Source: Heterodontus francisci
Lineage: Eukaryota
Length of the DNA stretch: 64,000 nucleotides
Direction: 5' to 3'
NCBI RefSeq assembly: GCF_036365525.1
Contig: NC_090371.1
Span: 155,342,669 to 155,406,668, forward strand
Positions 5,075 through 59,500 of the stretch are shown here, one piece after another; within the stretch, counting starts at the first letter, position 1, and the number at the start of each line of letters is the position of its first letter. The notes under the pieces were generated by a model that was not told the DNA's origin, ran no database searches, and saw only the letters and a list, made by a program, of their open reading frames with translations. Both the position numbers and the translations under genes were made by a program.

Positions 5075-8042
5075 ATTTTTTCTTTATTCGGTCGTGGGAT
5101 GTGAGCATTCATGGCAAGGCAAGCCTTTATTGCCCACTAGACTTTCTGATTTTTTTATTTGTTTGTGAGATGTGAGCATCTCTGGCAAGGCCAGCATTTA
5201 TTGTCCATCCCTAATTGCCCTTGAGAAAGTGGTGGTGAGCTGCCTTCTTGAACCGCTGCAGTCCATGGAGTTGAGGTCACAATCAGAACAGCCATGATCT
5301 TATTGAATGGCGGAACAGGCTCAAGGGGCCAAATGGCCTACTCCTGCTCCTATTTCTTATGTTCTTAGATACACCCACAGTGCTGTTAGGGAGAAAGTTC
5401 CACGATTTTAACCAAGTGACAGTAAAGGAACAGCAATATAGTCCCAAGTCAGGATGTTGTATGATTTTGAAGGAGAATTTGCAGGAGTTGGTGTTCCCAT
5501 GGGTCTGCTGCCCTTGTTCTTATATGTGGTAGTGGTCGCGGGTTTGGAAGGTGCTGTCGAAGGAGCCTTGGTGAGTTGCTACAGTGCATCTTGTAGATGG
5601 TACACACTGGTGCCACTGTGTGTCAGTGGTGGAAAAAGTGAATATTTAAGATTGTGGAAGGGGTGATAATCAAGCGGGCTGCTTTGTCCTGGATGGCGTT
5701 GAGCTTCTTGCGTGTTGTTGGAGCTGCATTCATCCAGGCAAGTGGAGAGTATGCCAACACAATCCTCAATTGTGAGTTGTAGATGATAAAGCCTGACATC
5801 GGTAGTGGGGAAAATTCTAGAGTCCATTATCAAAGATTTTATAGCAGAGCACTTAGAAAACAGTGGTAGAATCAGGCAGAGTCAGCATGGATTTACGAAA
5901 GGGAAATCATGCTTGACAAATCTACTAGAATTCTTCGAGGATGTAACTAGTAGAGTTGATGAGGGGGATCCAGTGGATGTGGTTTATTTGGACTTTCAGA
6001 AGGCTTTCGACAAAGTCCCACATAAGCGATTAGCGTGTAAAATTAAAGCACATGGGATTGGGGGTAGTGTATTGTGACGGATAGAAAATTAGTTGGCAGA
6101 CAGGAAACAAAGAGTGGGGATAAATCGGTCTTTTTCCGAATGGCAGGCAGTGACTAGTGAGGTACCGCAGGGATCGGTGCTAGGACCCCAGCTATTCACA
6201 ATATATATTAATGATTTAGATGAGGGAACTAAATGTAATATCTCCAAATTTGGAGATGACACAAAACTGGGTGGGACGGTATGTTGTGAGGAGGATGCAG
6301 AGAGGTTTCAGGGTGATTTGAACAAGTTGAGTGAGTGGGCTAATGCATGACAGATGCAGTATAATGTGGATAAATGTGAGGTTATCCACTTTGGTAGCAA
6401 AAACAGGAAGGCAGATTATTATCTGAATGGCTACAAACTGAAAGAGGGGAATATGCAGCGAGACCTGGGTGTTCTCGTACATCAGTCGCTGAAGGTAAGC
6501 ATGCAGGTGCAACAGGCGGTAGAAAAGGCAACTGGTATGCTGGCCTTCATAGTGAGAGGATTCGAGTACAGGAGCATGGATGTCTTGCTGCAATTATACA
6601 GGGCCTTGGTGAGGCCAGACCTGGAATATTGTGTGCAGATTTGATCTCCTTATCTGAGGAAGGATGTTCTTGCTATAGAGGGAGTGCAGCGAAGGTTTAC
6701 CAGACTGATTCCTGGGATGGTGGGACTGACGTATGAGGAGAGATTGAGTTGGTTAGGATTATATTCGCTGGAGTTCAGAAGAGTGAGGGGGGATCTCATA
6801 GAAACCTATAAAATTCTAACAGGACTTGACAGGGTAGATGCAGGAAGGATGTTTCCGATGGTGGGGGAGTCCAGAACCAGGGGTCATAGTCGAAGGATAC
6901 AGGGTAAAACTTTCAGGACTGAGATGAGGAGAAATTTCTTCACCCAGAGAGTGGTGAGCTGGTGGATTTCGCTACCACAGAAAGCAGTTGAGGCCAAAAC
7001 ATTGTATGTTTTCACGAAGGAGTTAGATATAGCTCTTGGGTCTAAAGGGATCAAAGGGTATGGGGCGAAGCGGGAACAGGCTACTGAGTTGGATGATCAG
7101 CCATGATCATAATGAATGGCGGAGCAGGCTCGAAGGGCCTAATGGCCTACTCCTGCTCCTATTTTCTATGTTTCTATGTATGTTTCTATTAAACAGACTT
7201 TGGGGAGACAGGAGGTGAGTTATTCACTGCAGAATTCCCAGCCTCTGGCCTGCTTTCATAGCCACAGTATTTATTTGGCTGGTCCAGTTAAGTTTCTAGT
7301 GAATGATAACCCCCCAAGATGTTGCTAGTGGGGGATTCAGCAATGGTATTGCAATTGAATGTCAAGGGGAGCTAGTTAGATACTCTCTTGTTGGAGATGG
7401 TCATTGCCTGGCACTTGTGTGGCACGAATGTTACTTGCCACTTATCAGCTCAAGCCTGAATGCTGTCCAGGTCTTGCTGCATGCAGACACAGACTGCCTC
7501 AGTACCTGCAGAGTTGTGAACGGTGCTGAGCACTGTGTAATCATCAGTGAACATTCTCACTTTTGACCTTATGATGGAGGGGAGGTTATTGATGAGACAG
7601 CTGAAGATGGTTGGGTCTAGGACTCTATTCTGAGGAACCCCTGCAGCGATGTCCTGGGGCTGAGATGATTGGCCTTCAACAACCACAACCATCCTTCTTT
7701 GTGCTAGGTATGACCAGTTGAGTGTTTTCCCCATTGATTCCCATTGACTTCAATTTTGCGAGGGGTCCTTGATGCCGCACTTGGTCAAATGCTGCCTTGA
7801 TGTCAAGAGCGGTCACTCTCCCCTCCCCTCTAGAAGTCAGCTCTTTCGCCCATGTTTGGACCTTTAATGAGGTCTGGAATCAAGTGGCCCTGGCGGAACC
7901 AAAACTGAGCATCAATAAGCAGGTTTTTGCTGAGTAAGTGCCACTTGATAGCACTGTCAATGACATGTTCCATCACTTTGCTAATTGAGTGTAGACTGAT
8001 GGGACAGGAATTGCCTGGATTGGATTTATCCTGCTTTTTGTG
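5075..8042 (-). mobile_element. 5'-truncated copy of the tRNA-headed LINE family, interrupted by CR1 insertions at ~5267-5368 and ~5792-7187
   Basis: Reverse-complement match to ~47080-48450. ORF 7450..7734 reads GVPQNRVLDPTIF..MFTDDYT. Confidence 0.85.
5792..7187 (+). mobile_element. 5'-truncated CR1/HER1-type LINE (RT and 3' UTR)
   Basis: QHGFTKGKSCLTNL, YLDFQKAFDKVPH, VPQGSVLGP and KFGDDTKL are present with several stops. Ends in a tttctatg-type tail. Highly similar to ~24967-26355. Confidence 0.95.
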
Positions 8043-11582: not shown

Positions 11583-12142
11583 ATTAATCTATATAACACA
11601 GCCACTGGTAAATGTGAGAGCCCAATATTTTTCTTTTTAAAAATCTAAAACAGGTTTTGAATTGTATTTTATCTGAATTGACTGTGTAACCTATTACTTT
11701 GGTTAAATGGCAAAAGAAACACTATGCAAAAGGAAAAACTTGGATAATGTTTCAGTTCAGTGGTGCTGTCGAGATTGAAACCAATCTTATAAGATAATCC
11801 TACTTATCCTCATTTTGTGGTAAGGGTCAATTATTTACTGATCATAAATTAAAATCCATACCATAGAGATACCTGAATTAACATTGACATTTATTTTACA
11901 CTTGACCTCTCATTGGGCTCTCTAGTATACCACAGCCTACTGTACCTAAACTGTGAGGGACCACTACCAGATAAAACTCTGTAGTTCCAACCCTTGTGAC
12001 AAACACCTTGCCATTCATCCATCTTTTGTTTCCTTTATATAGCCCCAGAGAGCTTCATACTTTGCTGCACTGTTCTCTCTACAGTTCCTCCCACTTTCCA
12101 GCTTAGTTGTTTAAATTATGACCGTTGTAACTGTTAACTCTC

Positions 12143-13520
12143 AGGACCACTTCGCTTCAGACCTCATTACAGCCTTGGTCCAAATATGGACCAAAGAGCT
12201 GAATTCTAGAGGTAGGGTGAGATTGACTGCCCTTGACATCAAGGGTGGTATCAAGCAGCCTTTGTAAAATTGAGGTCCATGAGAATCAGGGAAACTCTTC
12301 ACTGGCTGGAGTCATACCTAACACAAAGGAGGATGGTTGTGGTTGTTGGAGGCCAAACATCTCAGCCCCAGGTCATTGCTATGATAGAAACATAGAAAAA
12401 TAGGAGGAGTAGGTCATTCGGTCCTTCGAGCCTGCACCTCCATTCAATACGATCATGGCTGATCATCCAAACTCAGTAACCTATTCCCGCTTTCTTCCCA
12501 TATCCCTTGATCCCATTAGCCCGAAGAACTATATCTAACTCTTCTTGAATATATTTAATGATTTGGCCTCAACTGCTTTCCGTGGTAGAGAATTCCACAG
12601 GTTCACCACTCTCTGGGTGAAGAAATCTCTCCTCATCTCAGTCCTAAATGGCTTACTCCTTATCTTTAGACTGTGACACCTGGTCCTGGACTCCCCCGCC
12701 ATCGGGAACATCCTTCCTGCATCTAGTCTGTCCAGTCCTGTTAGAATTTTGTAGATTTCTATGAGATCCCCTCTCATTCTTCTATACTCTAACAAACACA
12801 AGCGTAATCGATCCAATCTCTCTTCATACATCAGTCCTGCCATCCCAGGAATCAGTCTGGTGAACCTTCGCTGCCCTCCCTCCATAGCAAGAACATCCTT
12901 CCTCAGATAGGGAGACCAAAACTGCACACAATACTCCAGATGTGGTCTCACCAAGGCCTTGTATAATGAAGCAGTCTGTGCCCACATACAGCATGACCTT
13001 GACAACATTAAGGCTTGGGCTGATAAGTAGAAAATAACATTTGTGCCACACAAGTGCCAGGCAATGACCATCTTCAACAAGAGGGCTCCCCTTGACATTT
13101 AATGGCATTACCATTGCTGAGTCCCCCACCATCAACATCCTAGGGGTTATCATTGACCAGAAATTTAACTGGACCAGCCATATAAATACTGTGGCTACAA
13201 AAGCAGGTCAGAGGTTGGGAATTCTACAGTATTTCACCTCTTGACTCTCCAAAGTCTATCCACCACCGACAAGGCACAAGTCAGGTGTGTGATGGAATAC
13301 TCCCCAATTGCCTGGATGAGTGCAGTTCCAACACTCAAGAAGCTTGACATGATCCAAGAAAAAGGAGCCTGCTTGTCAAAATCTGGAACTCTCCCTTGCA
13401 GCACTTTGGATGTACCTACAACACATGGACTGCAGCAGTTCAATAAGGTAGCTCACCACCACTTCACAAGGGCAATTAGTGATGGGCTGCGATGCCGCCA
13501 TTCCATGAATGAATAAAAAA
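12143..13520 (+). mobile_element. Truncated, internally deleted copy of the tRNA-headed LINE family, interrupted by CR1
   Basis: Matches ~47230-48450. Encodes KAQVRCVMEYSPIAW and ends in the tail gggcaattagtgatggg...gaatgaataaaaaa. Confidence 0.85.
12384..12967 (-). mobile_element. CR1/HER1 3' fragment
   Basis: Encodes LYKALVRPHLEYCVQFWSPYLRKD..FFTQRVVNLWNSLP, followed by the 3' UTR. Confidence 0.92.
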
Positions 13521-38762: not shown

Positions 38763-40158
38763 TGGTGACCATGAAACTACTAAAAACCCACTTGGTTCAC
38801 TGATGTCCTTGAGGCAAGGAAATGAGCCATCCTTACCAGGTCTGGCCTACATGTGACTCCAGACCCATAGCAACGTGGTTGATTCTGAACTGCCCTCTGA
38901 AATGGCCGAGCAAACCACTCTGTTATATCAAACTGTTGCAGAAAAGTTGAATAAGAACTCCCTTCCTAACAGCTGTTATGCACGGAAGGAGCTGTGATGA
39001 AATAAACAATGAAATGGAAAAATTATGAATGAAAATGTCAACTGTTAAACAAAACCACAAGAACATGGACAATTGTACCACAGTCAAAATTGATTGGCGG
39101 TCACATGAACCCTCCTTTACTTGAAATCAACAAACCTGTCTGAAAAGATGGAACTCATTAACCTCATCTGAAATAGTTCTGGGGAGAACCTCTTTGAAAT
39201 TGAAAAGAGCACAATTGTGTATTAATTATACTTATCAACATGAATGAACTAACAAAAGATTTTGGAGACAGACAAAATCACAACCCAAACAAAAATTGAA
39301 TAGGTGTGAAATAATACCGTGTTAACAGAATGGTCCCCTTTCTGACATCAATTGATTGTCACGGTCTCCACATCCTTGTCCATTGTGTGGTCACACATGG
39401 GAAGGGACGTGGGTCTCCTAACAGGAACTCTAATGTGATAGATTTTTACCTTAAAAAGATAGCCCTCAGGAGAGAGAGAGGAGATCAAGCCAAAACCTCA
39501 GAAAGCCAGTCCAGCCAGAGGCTGTACAAGAGATCTAGCCAAGCAAAAATAACCTGCTGAACAACAACTGGAACAGCCACTACAGCAGAGACATCACAAA
39601 GTGATTTTGATACTCACCATCTGTGAAGGTAATAAAATCCACACCACCAGCTTTGTGTTATGTTATAACCACTAGAGCTCTATAACACCTCAACAAGTTC
39701 AAGACTACAAACACCCAGGCCTGCACCTTTAAAAAATACTTTCTTTCTGAAAGGATTCAACAGGTTTACTGTAAACCATGAACACTTACCTCATATTGGA
39801 CTTCAAGCTACATTCTATCCTTTTCTCTCTATTTATTCTTGTTTATGTGTGTGTGAGGATGAATGTGAGCGTGGGTGAGGTTGCAACCATTTCGGAAATT
39901 GTATAAAAATAGTTTTTTTTTTTAACCGACGAGAAAACCTATCATTTGTCTGTGTATTTGATCTGAAAGACACTTAGGGGCTAACGCATCATTTTAACAA
40001 AACACAATTGCGGTCACTGGGAGGTCAACAGTGAGAACCACCCACACCTCTTTCCACCTGTCTAACACAGCAGCGTGGGTATACCTATACCACATGGGCT
40101 CCACTACCTTAGTGATGGGCAGCAAATACTGGCCTTGCCAGCAATGCTCACATCCTGC
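38763..40158 (+). mobile_element. Bipartite SINE-like derivative of the tRNA-headed LINE (tRNA head missing), split by a solo LTR
   Basis: 38763-38955 matches ~45352-45552, then jumps to the LINE's terminal segment (gaactcccttcctaacagc, ~48294). The tail resumes at 40072. Confidence 0.8.
38974..40067 (+). mobile_element. Solo LTR, 1094 bp
   Basis: TGTTA...TAACA termini and an exact 4-bp TSD CAGC (38970-38973, 40068-40071). Removing it restores the host SINE sequence. Strand is tentative. Confidence 0.88.
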
Positions 40159-43880: not shown

Positions 43881-44127
43881 CCGGGTGCTCTGGTTTCCTC
43901 CCACATGCCAAAGACTTGCAGGTTGACAGGTTAATTGGCCATTATAAATTGCCCCTAGTATAGGTAGGTGGTAGGGAAATATAGGGACAGGTGGGGATGT
44001 GGTAGGAATATGGAATTAGTGTAGGGTTAGTATAAATGGGTGGTTGATGGTCGGCACAGACTCGATGGGCCGAAGAGCCTGTTTCAGTGCTGTATCCCTA
44101 AACTAAACTAAACTAAACTAAACTAAA
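43881..44127 (+). mobile_element. 5'-truncated HE1-type SINE with (CTAAA)n tail
   Basis: Reverse-complement match to 31742-31972. Confidence 0.92.
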
Positions 44128-45205
44128 TAGTCCATGCTGGGGCCGAACTAAATGCTTTATGTAGGTTTAGCTTAACTTCCTGGCTTTTGTACTATTTGCC
44201 TCTACTTATAAAACCCAGGATCCCTTATGCTCTACTAACTGATTTGTTAACCTGTTCTGCTACCTGCAAATATTTGTGTGCAAATGCCCCCAGGCCTCTC
44301 TGTTCTTGCACCCCCTTTAAAACTGTACCATTTAGCATGTATTGTCTCTCTTCATTCTTCCTACCCAAATTGTATCACCTTTCTGCATTGAATTTCATCT
44401 GCCCTGTGCACACCCATCTCACCAGCTTTTCTATATCCTCTTGAAATCTGTTACAATATTATGCTATGTTAACTAGCTTCCAAGTTTTGTTTCATCTGCA
44501 AATTTTGTAACAGTATCCTGTATCCCCAAGTCCAAGTTATTAGTACAGAACCAAGAACAGCTGTGGTCCGATTACTAAACCTTGGGGAGCTGCAGTATAC
44601 ATTTACCTTCATCTGATAAACAGCCATTCATCACAACTCTTGTTTTCTAGCCCTTAGCCAATTTTGTATCCATGCTGCTACTGCCCCTTTTATTCCATGG
44701 GCTTCAATTTTGGTAACAAGCCTAAGATGTAGTACTGTATTAAATGCCTTTTGAAAGACCACATGCACAATATCAACTGCCCTGCCCTCATCCATCCTTT
44801 CTGTTACTTTTTCAAAATAATACATCAAATATGATGTGCCCTTACCAATTCCATGCTGTCTCTCCTTTATTAATCCATGCTTGTCCAGGTGGCTGTTAAT
44901 TTTCTCCCAGATTATTGTTTCTTAAAGCTTCCCCACCACTGACCTTAAACTGAGTTGCCTATAATTACCAGATTTATCCTTCTCCCCTTTTCTGAACAAG
45001 GGTGTAACATTTGCAGTCCTCCAGTTCTTTGGCACCAGCCCAATATCTAAATAGGATTGGAAGATTGTGGCCAGCAGCGCCATTACTTTTCTACCCTACC
45101 TCTCTGAGCAACCTAGGATGCACCCATCTGGGCCAGGTGACTTACCTACTATAAGTACTACTCCTCGTTGGGCAGGAAACATACTGGTCCAGGAAATTCT
45201 CCTCA

Positions 45206-48200
45206 GGCAGTGGTGCAGTGGTAATGTCACTGGACTAGCAATCCAGCAGCCCAGGCTAATGCTCTGGGAACACGGGTTCAAATCCTACCACGGCAGCTGG
45301 TGGAATTTAAATTTGATTAATAAATCTGGAATTAAAAGCTACTCTTAGTAATGGTGACCAGGAAACCATTGTCGATTGTCATAAAAACCCATCTGGTTCA
45401 CTCATGTCATTTAGAGAAGGAAATCTGCCGTCCTTACCTGGTCAGGTGACTCCCGACCCACAGCAATGTGATTGACTCATAAATTCCCTCTGAAATGGCC
45501 CAGCAAGCCACTCAGTTGTTCCAAACCACTCGAGAAAAGTCTAAAAAGGAATACAACCGGATGGACCACCCGACATCAACCTAGGCACCGGAAATGACAA
45601 CAGCACACCCAGCCCTGTTGACCCTGTAAAGTCCTCCTTACTAACATCTGGGGGCTTGCACCAAAATTGGGAAAGCTATCCCATAGACGAGTCAAGCAAC
45701 AGCCTGACATAGTCATGCTCATGGAATCATACCTTACTGACAATATCCCAGACGCCACCATCACCATTCCTGGGTAGGTCTAGTCCCACCAACAGGACAG
45801 ACCCAGCAGAAATGGTGGCACAATGGTATACAGTCAGGAGGGAGTTGCCTTGGGAGTCCTCAACATTGACTCTGGACCCATGAAGTCTCAAGGCATCAGG
45901 TCAAACATGGGCAAGGAAACCTCCTGCTGATTACCACCTACCACCCCGCCTCGTCTGATGAATCAGTGCTTCTTCCAATTGGTGTTCAGTATGGAGAAGC
46001 ACTGAGGGTGACAAGGACACAGAATGTACTCTGGTTGCGGGATTTCAATGTCCATCACCAAGACTGACTTGGTAGCACCACTACTGACCAAGCTGTCCGA
46101 GTCCTAAAGGACATAGCTGTTAGCCTAGGTCTGCGGCAGGTGGTGAGGGAACCAATAAGAGGAAAAATTCTACTTGACCTCGTCCTCATCAATCTAGTGT
46201 CACAGACGCATCTGTCCATGACTGTATTGGTAGGAGTGACCACTGCACAGTCCTTGTGGAGACCAAATCCCATCTTCACACTGAGAGTACCCTCCATCGT
46301 GTTGTGTGGCACTACCACCGTGCTAAATGGGATAGATTTTGAACAGATCTAGCAACTCAAAACTGGGCATCCATGAGGCGCTGTGCGCCATCAACAGCAA
46401 CTGAATTGTATTCGACCACAATCTGTAACCTCGTGGCCTGGCATATCCCCCACTCTACCATTACCATCAAGCTGACAGGTCAACCCCATTACAATGAAGA
46501 GTGCAGAAGGGCATGCCAGGCATATCTAAAAATGAGATGTCAACCTGGTGAAGCTACAACACAGGACTACATACATGCCAAACAACAGAAGCAGCATGCG
46601 ATAGACAGCGCTAAGCAATTCCACAGCCAACGGATCAGATCTAAGCTCTGCAGTCCTGTCGCATCCAGTGGTGAATGGTAGTGGACAATTAAACAACTAA
46701 CAGGAGGAGGAGGCTCCACAAACATCCCCATTCTCAATGATGGGAAAGCCTAACACACCTGTGCAAAAGACAAGGCTGAAGCATTTGCCACCATCTTCAA
46801 CCAGAAGTGCCAAGTGGATAATTCATCTCGGCCTCCTCCTGAGGTCCCCAGCATCACAGATGCCAGTCTTCAGCTAACTTAATTCCCTCCACGTGATATC
46901 AAGAAATGGCTGAAGGCATTGGATACTGTGAAGGCTGTGGGCCTTGACAACATACCGGCAATAGTACTGAAGATTTGTGTTCCAGAACAAGCCGCGCCCT
47001 GAGCCAACTAGTTCCAGTACAACTACAATGCTGGCATCTACCCAACAATGTGGAAAATTGCCCAGTTTTGTCTTGTACACAAAAAGCAGGACAAATTCAA
47101 TCCAGCCAATTACCACCCCATCAGTCTTCTCTGGATCATCAGCAAAGTGAGGGAAGGTGTCGTTGACAGTGCTGTCAAGCAGCACTTACTCAGCACAACT
47201 TGCTCACTGATGCTCAGTTTGGATTTCGCCAGGGCCACCCGGCTCCTGATCTCATTACAGCCTTTGTCCAGTCTTGGACAAAAGAGCTGAATGCAAGAGG
47301 TGAGGTGAGAGTAACTGCTCTTGACATCAAGGCAGCATTTGATTAAGTGTGGCATCAAGGAGCCTAGCAAAATTGGAGTCGATGAGAATCAAGAGGAAAC
47401 CCTCCACTGGTTGGAGTCATACCTAGCACAAAGGAAGATGGTTGTGGTCATTGTAAGTCAATCATCTCAGTCCCGGGATATCACTTCAGGAGTTCCTCAG
47501 GGTAATGTCCTAAGCCCAACCATCTTCAGATGCTTCATCAATGACCTTCCCTCCATCATAAGGTCAGAAGTGGGGATGTTCGCTGATGATTACACAATGT
47601 TTAGCACCATTCTTGATTACTCAGATATTGAAGCAGTCTGTGTCCATATGCAGCAAGACCTGGAGAACATGCAGGCTTGGGCTGATAAGTGGCAAGTTAC
47701 ATTTGCATCACACAAGTGCCAGGCAATGACCATCTACAACAAGAGAGTATCCAACCATCTCCCCTTGACATTCAATGACATTACCATTGCTGAATCCCCC
47801 ACAATCAACATTCTGGGGGTTACCATTGACTAGAAACTGAACTGGACCAGCCATATAAGTACTGTGGCTACAAGAGCAGGTCAGAGGCTGGGAATTCAGT
47901 GGCAAATAACTCATAAGCCTGTCCACCATCTACAAGGTTCAAGTCAGGAGTGTGATGGAATACTCTCAACTTGCCTGGATGGGTGCAGCTCCAACAACAA
48001 TCAAGAAGCTCGACACCATCTAGAACAAAGCAACCTGCATAATTGGCATCCCATCCACCACCTTCAACATTCATGCCCTCCACCACACAGTGGCAGCAGT
48101 GTGTACCATCTACAAGATGCACTGCAGGAACTCACCAATGGTCCATCAGCAGCACCTTCCAAACCCACAAACTCTACCACCTAGAAGGACAAGAGCAACA

Positions 48201-48452
48201 GATGTATGGGAACACTACCACCTGCAAGTTCCCCTCCAAGCCTGACGTGGAACTATGTCACCATTCTTTCACTGTCACTGGGCCAAAATCCTGGAACTCC
48301 CTTCCTAACAGCACTGTGGGTATACCTACACCACATGAACTACAGCGGTTCAAGAAGGCGGATCATCTCCACTTTCTCAAGGGCAATTAGGGATGTATAA
48401 TAAGTGCTGGCCTAGCCAGTGATGCTCACATCCCGTGAAAGAATAATAAAAA
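45206..48452 (+). mobile_element. Full-length decayed single-ORF LINE (APE+RT) with a tRNA-like 5' head
   Basis: A box 45211-45221 and B box 45275-45285. From ~45630 it encodes LLTNIWGL, PDIVMLMESYL, RDFNVHH, LLDLVL, GVPQGNVLSPTIF, MFADDYT and WNSLPNS, with a stop at 48390 and an A-rich tail. Confidence 0.88.
45211..45285 (+). promoter_or_regulatory. Internal Pol III (type 2) promoter, tRNA-like
   Basis: tggtgcagtgg (A box), ggttcaaatcc (B box), an anticodon-like stem ctgga/tccag with a 7-nt loop and a long variable-arm hairpin cccag..ctggg. Confidence 0.8.
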
Positions 48453-49706
48453 ACACTTCAGAAATTCATCCCTTCTCTGTCCTTAATATAATCATTGCCC
48501 CATTCAATATTGGGACAGTTAAAATCTCCCAGTATCAATACTCTATAGTTTTTGCATCTCTCAGTAATTTCTTTGCAGACTTGCTCCTCTATCTCCATCC
48601 CACTATTTGGTGGCCTACAAAATATACCCAGCAGCATAATGCCTCCAACCAAATACAGTTGATTCTGTCTTTGCCCCTTCCAGAACATTCTCTCTTTCTA
48701 GCAGTGCATATTTTTCTTAATCAAAGCTGCTATCCCTCCTCCTGTTTTCCTTCCTATCTTTCTTGAATACCTTGAATCCTGGAATATTAATTATCCTTTC
48801 CCAATACATCATATTCCAACATGGTTATTTTTGCCTGCAGCTCACCAACCTTATTAACCACAGTTGCACGCCACACCTAACGTAGACCTCTTTGTATTTC
48901 CTATGATCCCACCTAATTCTGTATTATTTCTAACTCTGACAGTTTCTTCCAGCCCTCTGTGTACCTTGTTTCTACTTTTTAATACTACATCATGGTGCCT
49001 AACCCCCTGGTGAGTTAGTTTAAACCCTCCCCCACAACATTAGTTAACATGCCCACAAGGATATTGGTCCAAGCTCTGTTCAGGTGCAACCTGTCCATCT
49101 TGAATATGTCCCTGTTGCCATAAAACTAGTCCCAGTGTCCCAGGAATATGAAGTCCTCCCTCTTGTACCGTGTCTCTAGCCACGCATTAACCGACCATAT
49201 CCTCCTCTTTCTAATCTCTGGCAAATTGTATATTGTGTCCTGCTTTCAGTGCTAAATATCAGTTAGTGGGAAACCAGGATATTTTATGAGTTAGACTTTT
49301 ATCTTTCTGTTCAGTTAATGAAGTGATTGTGCTGGAACTTACTGCATTAAGCATTTCGCGAATGTTCATCCAGTGAAGGAAAACTGCAAGGCCATTCCAC
49401 TATTTTCGTATCGTCAAAGGCTTTCACTTGTATTATGGGTAGCTACAGATGCTGTTTTATCTACTGTGTCTGAGGATGTTTATTTGTGATACCTTCAGTG
49501 TTCTGTTTTGACTGTGCCCTAGGTCAAATGCATTACATTTATAGAAGCTGTTACATTTGATAGGTTGTTGTTTCCCTCCTGTGATGTACAACAACATTTG
49601 TCTTTTACGTTGTGATCTCGAGTTCACATATTCTTGGGCTAAATACTTGTCTGTTTTTCAAGTACAAATTTCTGAAAAGCAGGTCTGAGTTATCTGCTGA
49701 TACCGT

Positions 49707-58284: not shown

Positions 58285-59500
58285 TGATGTAGTGGTTATG
58301 TTACTGGATTAGTAATCTAGAGGCCTGAACTAGTGATCCAGGGAATATAGCCTTCAATCCACCATGCCAGCTTGAGAACTTGAATCCAATTTTTAAAAAA
58401 TTGAAACTAAAAACTGGTATCACTAAAAATGACCATGGCCGGAATTTTACGGCACCCCCATCGAGCCAGATGGTGGCGGGGGTGGGGGGTGGCGTAAGAT
58501 GGAGCGGGAGGCTCCAGGAGGCTTTCCCGACCCACTTCCGCCTCCGCCCCCCCCCCCCCCATTACACAGGGAGGGGGAACAATAAACGGGCCGCCCGCCC
58601 CTGACCAATCTAGGCCCTTAAGTTGCCACTTAACAGCCACTTAAGGGCCTTCACCCGCCTCCACACAGATTTTACGCTTGGCAAGCGGGCGTCCTGGAGC
58701 TGGGAAAAGCCACTAGAAAAACCAGGCGGCTTCTCAGCGCGCCGGGGGCCCTGATATTCAGGCACAGGGTGCCCAATGGAGGGCCGTCCGTGCTTCCCCA
58801 ACCACCCCCAGGACCTAACATGCCCCCTTCCCCCCAAACGACCACCCTTGCCTCACCGGGGCCCGACCGATTACCCCCGGCAAGACAACCAAAACTCACC
58901 TTAAATCCCGGCTCCATGTCTGCGGGCAACTGGGCTGCAGTCCCAGTAGTGGCCACCGCTCCCGGTGGCGTTGCTGGGACTAAGAGCTGCCGGGCCGCTG
59001 ATTGGCCAGCAGCTCAATGAGGCAGGACTCCCTCACTCAAGCGGGTGGATGTCCCGCCTTGGAACAATTAAAGCCTGGGGCCCCATAAAATGTGGGACAG
59101 ATTCCCAGGCAAGGCGGAAGTGGGTTTGCCACCGACTTTTATGTCAATGGCCAGCTTCCGTCCGCCCAATGTAAAATCCAGCCCCAGGAAGCTGTTGGAT
59201 TGCTATAAAAACCTAACTGGCTCACCAGTATACTTGAGGGAAGGAAACCTGCTGTCCTTACCCAGTGACTCCAGCCCCACACCAACATAATTGACTCTTA
59301 ACTGCCCTGTGAAGTGACCTAACAAGTCACTCAATTGTAAATATCAAAGAATAACAAGAACTCTCTGCTTAAAAGCATTGTATGAGCAACTTCACCTCAC
59401 GGGCTGCAGTGGTTTAAGAAGAAGATCCACTACCGTCGTCTTAAGGAGAACTCAGGATGGACAACAAATGTCAGGATTGCCAGTGATGCCTATATGGTAT
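58285..59500 (+). mobile_element. Bipartite SINE (tRNA head + 5' region + tail of the tRNA-headed LINE), split by a MITE
   Basis: Head tgatgtagtggttatgttactggattagtaatctag matches 45211-45246, the body matches to ~45550, then it jumps to the LINE terminus at ~59359. Confidence 0.8.
58437..59184. mobile_element. Harbinger-type MITE (~0.8-kb family, opposite orientation)
   Basis: Termini ggccggaattttac...gtaaaatccagccc, flanks cat/cag. Confidence 0.88.

Follow-up and report, generated by a model that had tools for sequence, protein, structure and literature searches.

Retroelements without LTRs are classically divided into LINEs, which code for proteins and are transcribed by Pol II, and SINEs, which are transcribed by Pol III and are non-coding. 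In five elasmobranchs, LINEs of the Zenon clade (CR1 group) were described that lack ORF1 and end in poly-A tails (Stuart et al. 2026, PMC13343379). The tRNA-derived SINEs (SINE2, including T+ SINEs; PMC8466645) share with the elements considered here a head with A and B boxes, a conserved body, a LINE-type tail and the AATAAA signal before the A tail. However, the shark LINE is 3.3 kb long and encodes its own APE and RT under purifying selection. RTE-1_DAn and the elements related to it (PMC5786205) are likewise LINEs said to contain a tRNA-like sequence, but they belong to the RTE clade, and the position and function of this sequence are absent from that mention. Cassandra, Helenus and Ajax (TRIMp3; PMC10886601) are also retroelements other than SINEs that have Pol III promoters derived from small RNAs; unlike the shark element, they are non-autonomous LTR elements of 0.3-1.3 kb encoding no protein. 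No description of an autonomous LINE with a tRNA head was found in the literature; Repbase, Dfam and SINEBase were outside that search.

The window, a stretch of 64,000 nucleotides from Heterodontus francisci, contains at positions 45206..48452 an element of 3.25 kb. Old and decayed, it belongs to an abundant family built on a constant plan: a fixed tRNA-like head at the 5' end, one endonuclease and reverse transcriptase frame, an A tail and no ORF1. The first-pass annotation left the clade unassigned; judged from sequence matches, it is Zenon. Motifs from the window element match the CarCar and RhiTyp consensus rows in the supplement of PMC13343379. APE and RT lie in one frame, ORF1 is absent, the tail is poly-A, and the first 400 nt match those of the published elasmobranch Zenon elements. 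The best database relatives are 47% identical. All seven elasmobranch Zenon consensus rows, compared by eye over the first 400 nt, open with the same head and body, and the species with a head-first published consensus are CarCar, RhiTyp, ScyCan, SquAca and HypSab (PMC13343379). In the published 5' ends of all five, both the A box and the B box can be made out, the B box of the ray being the most degenerate.

The published elements and those analysed here are alike in the lack of ORF1, APE and RT, poly-A tail, length of ~3.3 kb, head, body and start of the frame, and constitute the same family. However, the head, the avoidance of T-runs, the missing AUG and the link to a SINE are undescribed in the main text of that paper (PMC13343379), in which the words "tRNA" and "promoter" each occur zero times. 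In a whale shark preprint CR1-Zenon is named a single time, and the word tRNA does not appear. The family and its sequence were already in print, and no description of the head was found.

In the two hagfish rows and the coelacanth Zenon consensus (PMC13343379) the first 400 nt contain no such head or body, the coelacanth 5' end being poorly resolved. Among 80 contigs of invertebrate and metagenome relatives, ARAGORN with default settings made no call in the 43 longer ones; the relatives in question are remote (28-61%), and the contigs may lack their 5' ends. A relaxed tRNA scan of the relatives' contigs produced only noise, and a profile of the body had no match below E 1.5 in all 80. Since no such head was seen in the hagfish and coelacanth Zenons and in the metagenome relatives, it was probably gained in the elasmobranch stem.

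The features of the window copy and its surroundings are as follows.

45205..45295, plus strand: tRNA-like head (ARAGORN 45207-45295; the same start in 34 of 48 head-blind copies)
45211..45221, plus strand: A-box-like motif TGGTGCAGTGG (sequence; position 11 in the majority of copies)
45230..45246, plus strand: anticodon-like stem with a 7-nt loop (sequence, fold)
45250..45268, plus strand: long variable-arm hairpin (folds)
45275..45285, plus strand: B-box-like motif GGTTCAAATCC (sequence; position 75 in the majority)
45296..45517, plus strand: conserved non-coding body, common to the ~410-bp SINE (commonest SINE junction directly after 45517)
45490..45515, plus strand: hairpin whose 7-nt loop is anticodon-like (fold of a younger copy, alignments)
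45528..45530, plus strand: triplet complementary to the hairpin loop, in frame, candidate codon mimic (alignments; published 5' ends by eye)
45531..45630, plus strand: basic N-terminal extension, in frame (overlaps the family's out-of-frame, AUG-led frame of 46 codons)
45631..48390, plus strand: decayed APE endonuclease and reverse transcriptase frame (stops and frameshifts in the window copy)
48378..48452, plus strand: 3' tail common to the SINE, with a short A tail at its end
44140..45204, minus strand: host CR1 LINE downstream of the insertion point (remaining endonuclease, RT; outer limit approximate)
48453..49030, minus strand: host CR1 LINE upstream of the insertion point (endonuclease start; PF14529 match; outer limit approximate)

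The A box, B box, anticodon-like stem and variable arm that the first-pass annotation placed at the exact 5' end are all present, but the family 5' end lies ~4-5 nt upstream of the surviving one, and these nucleotides are lost in the window copy. The A-box-like motif begins 10 nt from the family 5' end. The call at 45207-45295 is the only tRNA reported by ARAGORN in the whole window, and Rfam gave no match at E<=1 in the region 44800-48800. The stretch of ~350 bp after the head, previously considered non-coding, is composite: ~230 bp are shared with the SINE, and ~100 bp are in frame with the endonuclease and encode the basic N-terminal extension. In the window copy one loop base of the hairpin at 45490..45515 and, relative to the family, the first base of the triplet at 45528..45530 are altered; the loop contains the stop closing the upstream frame. 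The reverse transcriptase of the decayed frame is recognised by PF00078 (E 3.6e-17), with the endonuclease pieces below Pfam scoring. Both domains predicted earlier, APE and RT, are found in a natural, less decayed copy, whose open frame of 937 codons matches PF14529, PF03372 and PF00078.

As had been noticed from the window alone, the element interrupts the endonuclease of a CR1 LINE on the minus strand. The frames on both sides continue one another, and in three uninterrupted CR1 copies the two flanks are joined with just 2 extra bases. Thus there is no target duplication at the window copy, and a single insertion brought in the head and the body together.

The repeat to the left of the host CR1 ends in a short (AAACT)n tract at 44098-44128. 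Further parts of the same LINE family, 3' pieces and two body fragments, are found in the window at 5083-8042 (minus strand), 12142-13487 (plus strand), 38781-38933 and 59198-59339. The endonuclease coding region contains a 44-nt inverted repeat at 45963-46006, which occurs in many copies.

A search of the 6.0-Gb genome with the head and endonuclease yielded 24,782 first-look candidates, a number biased to head-bearing copies that is not a copy number; 40 of the candidates were scored. Among 40 loci taken at full length, 28 align end to end. Two further queries were blind to the head. When the query was coding DNA alone, the family 5' end lay no more than 35 nt from the start of 19 of 29 non-self loci; of the others, 8 begin inside the head or body, and 2 lower. 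With the endonuclease of a distant relative as the protein query, 48 of 150 matches were examined (the top 30 and 18 picked for long open frames), all of them from the Zenon family of the window element. Of these, 34 start within 20 nt of the 5' end, nine inside the head or body, and five lower. The 5'-truncated copies have scattered start points, and no common alternative end was seen in the 12 nt upstream. Short target duplications are enriched: duplications of at least 5 nt surround 8 of 28 anchored copies, compared to 1.6 in shuffled pairs (maximum 6 in 1000), where 28 is the number of copies with anchored ends among 41, the window copy being one of the 13 left out. In contigs of sequencing runs from four organisms all 30 bins of the element are covered.

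The copies form two subfamilies, which are ~8% apart and, being 92% identical, are not independent. Copies of the young subfamily differ by 3-7% from their own majority sequence, and those of the older one by 6-15%; the window copy (9.2%) belongs to the latter. In 21 of 28 full-length copies an A precedes the 5' G run, which may mean that the true start is one base further up, or may reflect target choice. At loci L003, L012, L042, L060 and L129 the 3' part of the family adjoins the head-bearing part in opposite or displaced order, which suggests 5' inversions or nested insertions. Loci L015 and L016, ~357 kb apart on the same contig, have identical match coordinates and are likely a segmental duplication or an assembly duplicate.

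The majority sequence of 29 copies contains one stop-to-stop frame of 975 codons, whose first in-frame methionine is residue 285. Between the subfamilies pN is 0.019 and pS is 0.109 (pN/pS ~0.17), and the frame was under purifying selection. Together with the fixed head, this bears out the initial idea of an autonomous element with a SINE-like promoter, whose use by Pol III we infer. No plus-strand frame of at least 80 codons is present upstream of the main frame in the majority, and thus the reported absence of ORF1 holds; the only frame there is the overlapping one of 46 codons. No in-frame AUG precedes the endonuclease. It is preceded by ~30 codons of basic sequence, and basic N-terminal extensions also occur in the relatives. 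The leader before the frame contains 9-10 AUGs, which would be expected to hinder scanning. In the young-subfamily majority, TTA is used in none of 92 leucine codons.

The sense strand of the majority of 29 copies, the consensus in which TTTT terminators were to be sought according to the first-pass annotation, has no run of four or more T, compared to 15 runs of A, 13 of C and 8 of G. Base shuffling gives 4.5 expected T4 runs (P 0.009); within the frame alone 2.1 are expected, and the deficit is not significant (P 0.09). The frame contains 4 T3 runs, whereas 12.8 are expected from shuffling of synonymous codons, and none of 5000 shuffles gave so low a number; TT is depleted as well. At synonymous C/T positions, T stands at 4 of the 39 sites where its use would create a run of at least three and at 201 of 476 sites elsewhere (odds ratio 0.17, p 5e-5), whereas the odds ratios for runs of other bases are 0.78 (C), 0.61 (A) and 1.08 (G). 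The older subfamily likewise has no T4 runs, and 4 T3 runs with 11.8 expected. In 74 related frames (at least 400 codons, from 80 contigs) the T-run odds ratio has a median of 0.90 and a minimum of 0.36. In a CR1 majority built from this genome, 6 T4 runs occur in 1585 nt, although this is a weak control with broken frames and older copies. Oligo-T is the terminator of Pol III (PMC8466645). However, the depletion extends to T3 and TT, below the canonical terminator length, which leaves room for another cause, and pressure against U-runs other than Pol III termination is possible. T-runs before the A tail were considered as a relic of a terminator and rejected: runs of at least four T occur in 14 of 85 element ends and at 101 of 912 other T/A boundaries, and the two are indistinguishable.

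The head also occurs in a short element. A head-only query gave 29 matches, of which 17 are short, 9 extend into the coding region and 3 are fragments. The short form, ~410 bp, consists of the first ~321 nt and the last ~70 nt of the LINE, in which AATAAA lies ~40 nt before the A tail. One junction is common to most of 29 joined forms; in the rest the break lies at 335-361, 398 or 807 nt. Both subfamily types are represented. As read from these junctions, the LINE gives rise to the SINE by internal deletion, and, since the junctions vary and both types occur, this happened more than once. The dominant junction retains the hairpin and removes the candidate triplet. The tRNA-derived head with A and B boxes, characteristic of SINE2, is common to the 3.3-kb LINE and its derivative, whereas only the ~410-bp derivative is short and non-coding. 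A similar pair is formed by the lepidopteran Zenon and its derivative Persaeus (PMC6740152), where a single-ORF Zenon likewise yielded a short element made of its two ends. However, Persaeus has neither tRNA homology nor a Pol III promoter, whereas the elasmobranch short element has such a head, and thus a predicted Pol III promoter, because the parent LINE has it. Identity of the SINE with the Deu-domain element SacSINE1 was a first guess; it is unsupported, and the label is not claimed. The body profile had no convincing match outside the family among the 45 weakest of 301 matches in 1.23 Mb of genome. SacSINE1 was reported with an L2-type tail, which a Zenon-derived SINE does not need.

At the end of the body, pairing over 3-4 bp is possible between the 7-nt loop of the hairpin and a triplet that is in frame and lies 16 nt beyond the stem. 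The hairpin and the complementary triplet in frame are found in both subfamilies and in four of the five published species. The triplet and the conserved frame are separated by 21, 21, 21 and 18 nt of variable sequence in four species (by eye). In Squalus Zenon-1 the spacing is 20 nt, which breaks the frame from the candidate triplet. The linker before the triplet is 1 nt shorter in whale shark and contains an in-frame stop in Squalus (by eye); both features speak against a start upstream of the triplet. In stability the hairpin does not exceed shuffled sequences (z -0.27, fold of the younger copy), and no compensatory changes or covariation between the loop and the triplet were seen in the subfamilies and the published species' ends. 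Indels around the candidate start in contigs of other species are scattered, low-depth events of 1-4 nt and are uninformative.

This arrangement resembles the type 6 or intergenic region (IGR) IRES of dicistroviruses, where pseudoknot I mimics the anticodon-codon interaction (PMC12221177), in that a candidate loop may pair with an in-frame triplet before a non-AUG frame. However, Zenon has 3-4 possible pairs, no covariation and no identified PKII or PKIII: a simple stem search revealed no convincing equivalents of these domains, and Rfam had no match on the window copy. The word "retrotransposon" occurs zero times in the text of PMC12221177. An anticodon-mimic start at the hairpin can be proposed tentatively.

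In the older subfamily the anticodon loop of the head (45235-45241) and the loop of the downstream hairpin (45500-45506) are the same 7 nt; in the young subfamily the head loop has changed and the downstream loop has not. An out-of-frame AUG, decayed in the window copy (window ~45553-45690), is conserved in the five published species. In both subfamilies it opens a frame of 46 codons overlapping the endonuclease start.

On balance, the window element is a dead copy of an elasmobranch Zenon, and its tRNA-headed family was likely transcribed by Pol III and likely translated from a non-AUG start. Pol III transcription of the LINE, considered separately, is suggested by its sequence features to be rather probable. 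The A and B boxes would be bound by TFIIIC, Pol III would start ~10 nt upstream of the A box, and the absence of T4 would allow it to read through 3.3 kb. Such an RNA would be without a normal cap, and hence would require internal ribosome entry. The most likely place of entry would be the hairpin ending the body, with its loop paired to the in-frame triplet 16 nt downstream; this is the weakest step. The encoded protein would then reverse-transcribe its own RNA from the A tail in target-primed fashion, and an internal deletion would convert the LINE in one step to a Pol III-ready SINE. The short length of SINEs has been tied to weak processivity of Pol III (PMC10886601), which counts against a Pol III reading of the LINE. 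The conserved out-of-frame AUG, for which the proposed scheme gives no account, weighs against it too.

Chance adjacency of a SINE and a LINE, or a single chimera of the two, would account for the presence of the head in the short SINE (17 of 29 head-only matches). However, the junction is identical at dozens of unlinked loci, in head-blind searches, in two subfamilies and in the published consensus sequences of five elasmobranchs, and target duplications occur around whole elements. The contiguity of the head and the ORF at many independent loci, on which the first-pass annotation had staked its reading, is thus upheld, and the extremely improbable chance origin is refuted by the copies examined. 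Another possibility, unlikely but deserving attention, is that the head is a captured 5' part of a SINE and serves as a promoter for Pol II, as a UTR or as a signal for processing, and the LINE RNA is made by Pol II. For example, tRNA-processing enzymes could cut host read-through transcripts, and U-runs could be avoided for reasons of splicing or RNA decay. Indeed, LINEs are regarded as Pol II transcripts (PMC5786205, PMC10886601), there are single-ORF LINEs whose 5' ends process themselves (ribozymes; PMC5786205), and the depletion of T3 and TT reaches below the canonical terminator. On the other hand, no such depletion is seen in the 74 related frames or in CR1 of the same genome. A Pol III start and an RNase P cut differ in their geometry relative to the tRNA fold, and the family 5' end, upstream of the tRNA-like fold and 10 nt before the A box, corresponds to the former rather than to the latter. 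Moreover, both boxes remain recognisable in the five published 5' ends.

If Pol III transcription is accepted as proposed, translation could start at the out-of-frame AUG with a -1 shift, or involve read-through or a near-cognate codon, instead of anticodon mimicry. Wherever the published ends show them, Squalus included, both the AUG and the spacing between it and the endonuclease are conserved, and the 200 nt from this AUG contain just 2 differences between the subfamilies. However, no conserved slippery heptamer was seen by eye. Changes within the overlap leave the peptide of the endonuclease frame as it is but alter that of the AUG frame. The former peptide is arginine-rich, like the N-termini of the relatives, whereas the latter is not. 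If translation read through the loop stop from the AUG just ahead of it, or began at the UUG after the hairpin, it would not be in frame in whale shark, and in Squalus it would meet a stop. A start of any of these kinds is improbable.

The complete scheme based on Pol III transcription and the hairpin start combines an autonomous retrotransposon of sharks and rays, a 3.3-kb mRNA made by Pol III, a start at an anticodon-mimic hairpin that needs neither a cap nor an AUG, and the birth of SINEs by internal deletion. As a whole it is doubtful, although its parts differ in strength. Anticodon-mimicking start hairpins have so far been described in RNA viruses (PMC12221177). If the scheme is true, a vertebrate LINE with a tRNA head kept across sharks and rays and no AUG, with T-runs purged from 2.9 kb of coding sequence, would break the division between LINEs and SINEs and would be a natural case of a Pol III mRNA. 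Cap-independent initiation on an RNA of a cellular genome would then be testable with a 450-nt leader. The family also displays a one-step route to the birth of a SINE. The body of this SINE would have an identifiable job in the parent LINE, and this bears on the question of why SINE bodies are conserved.
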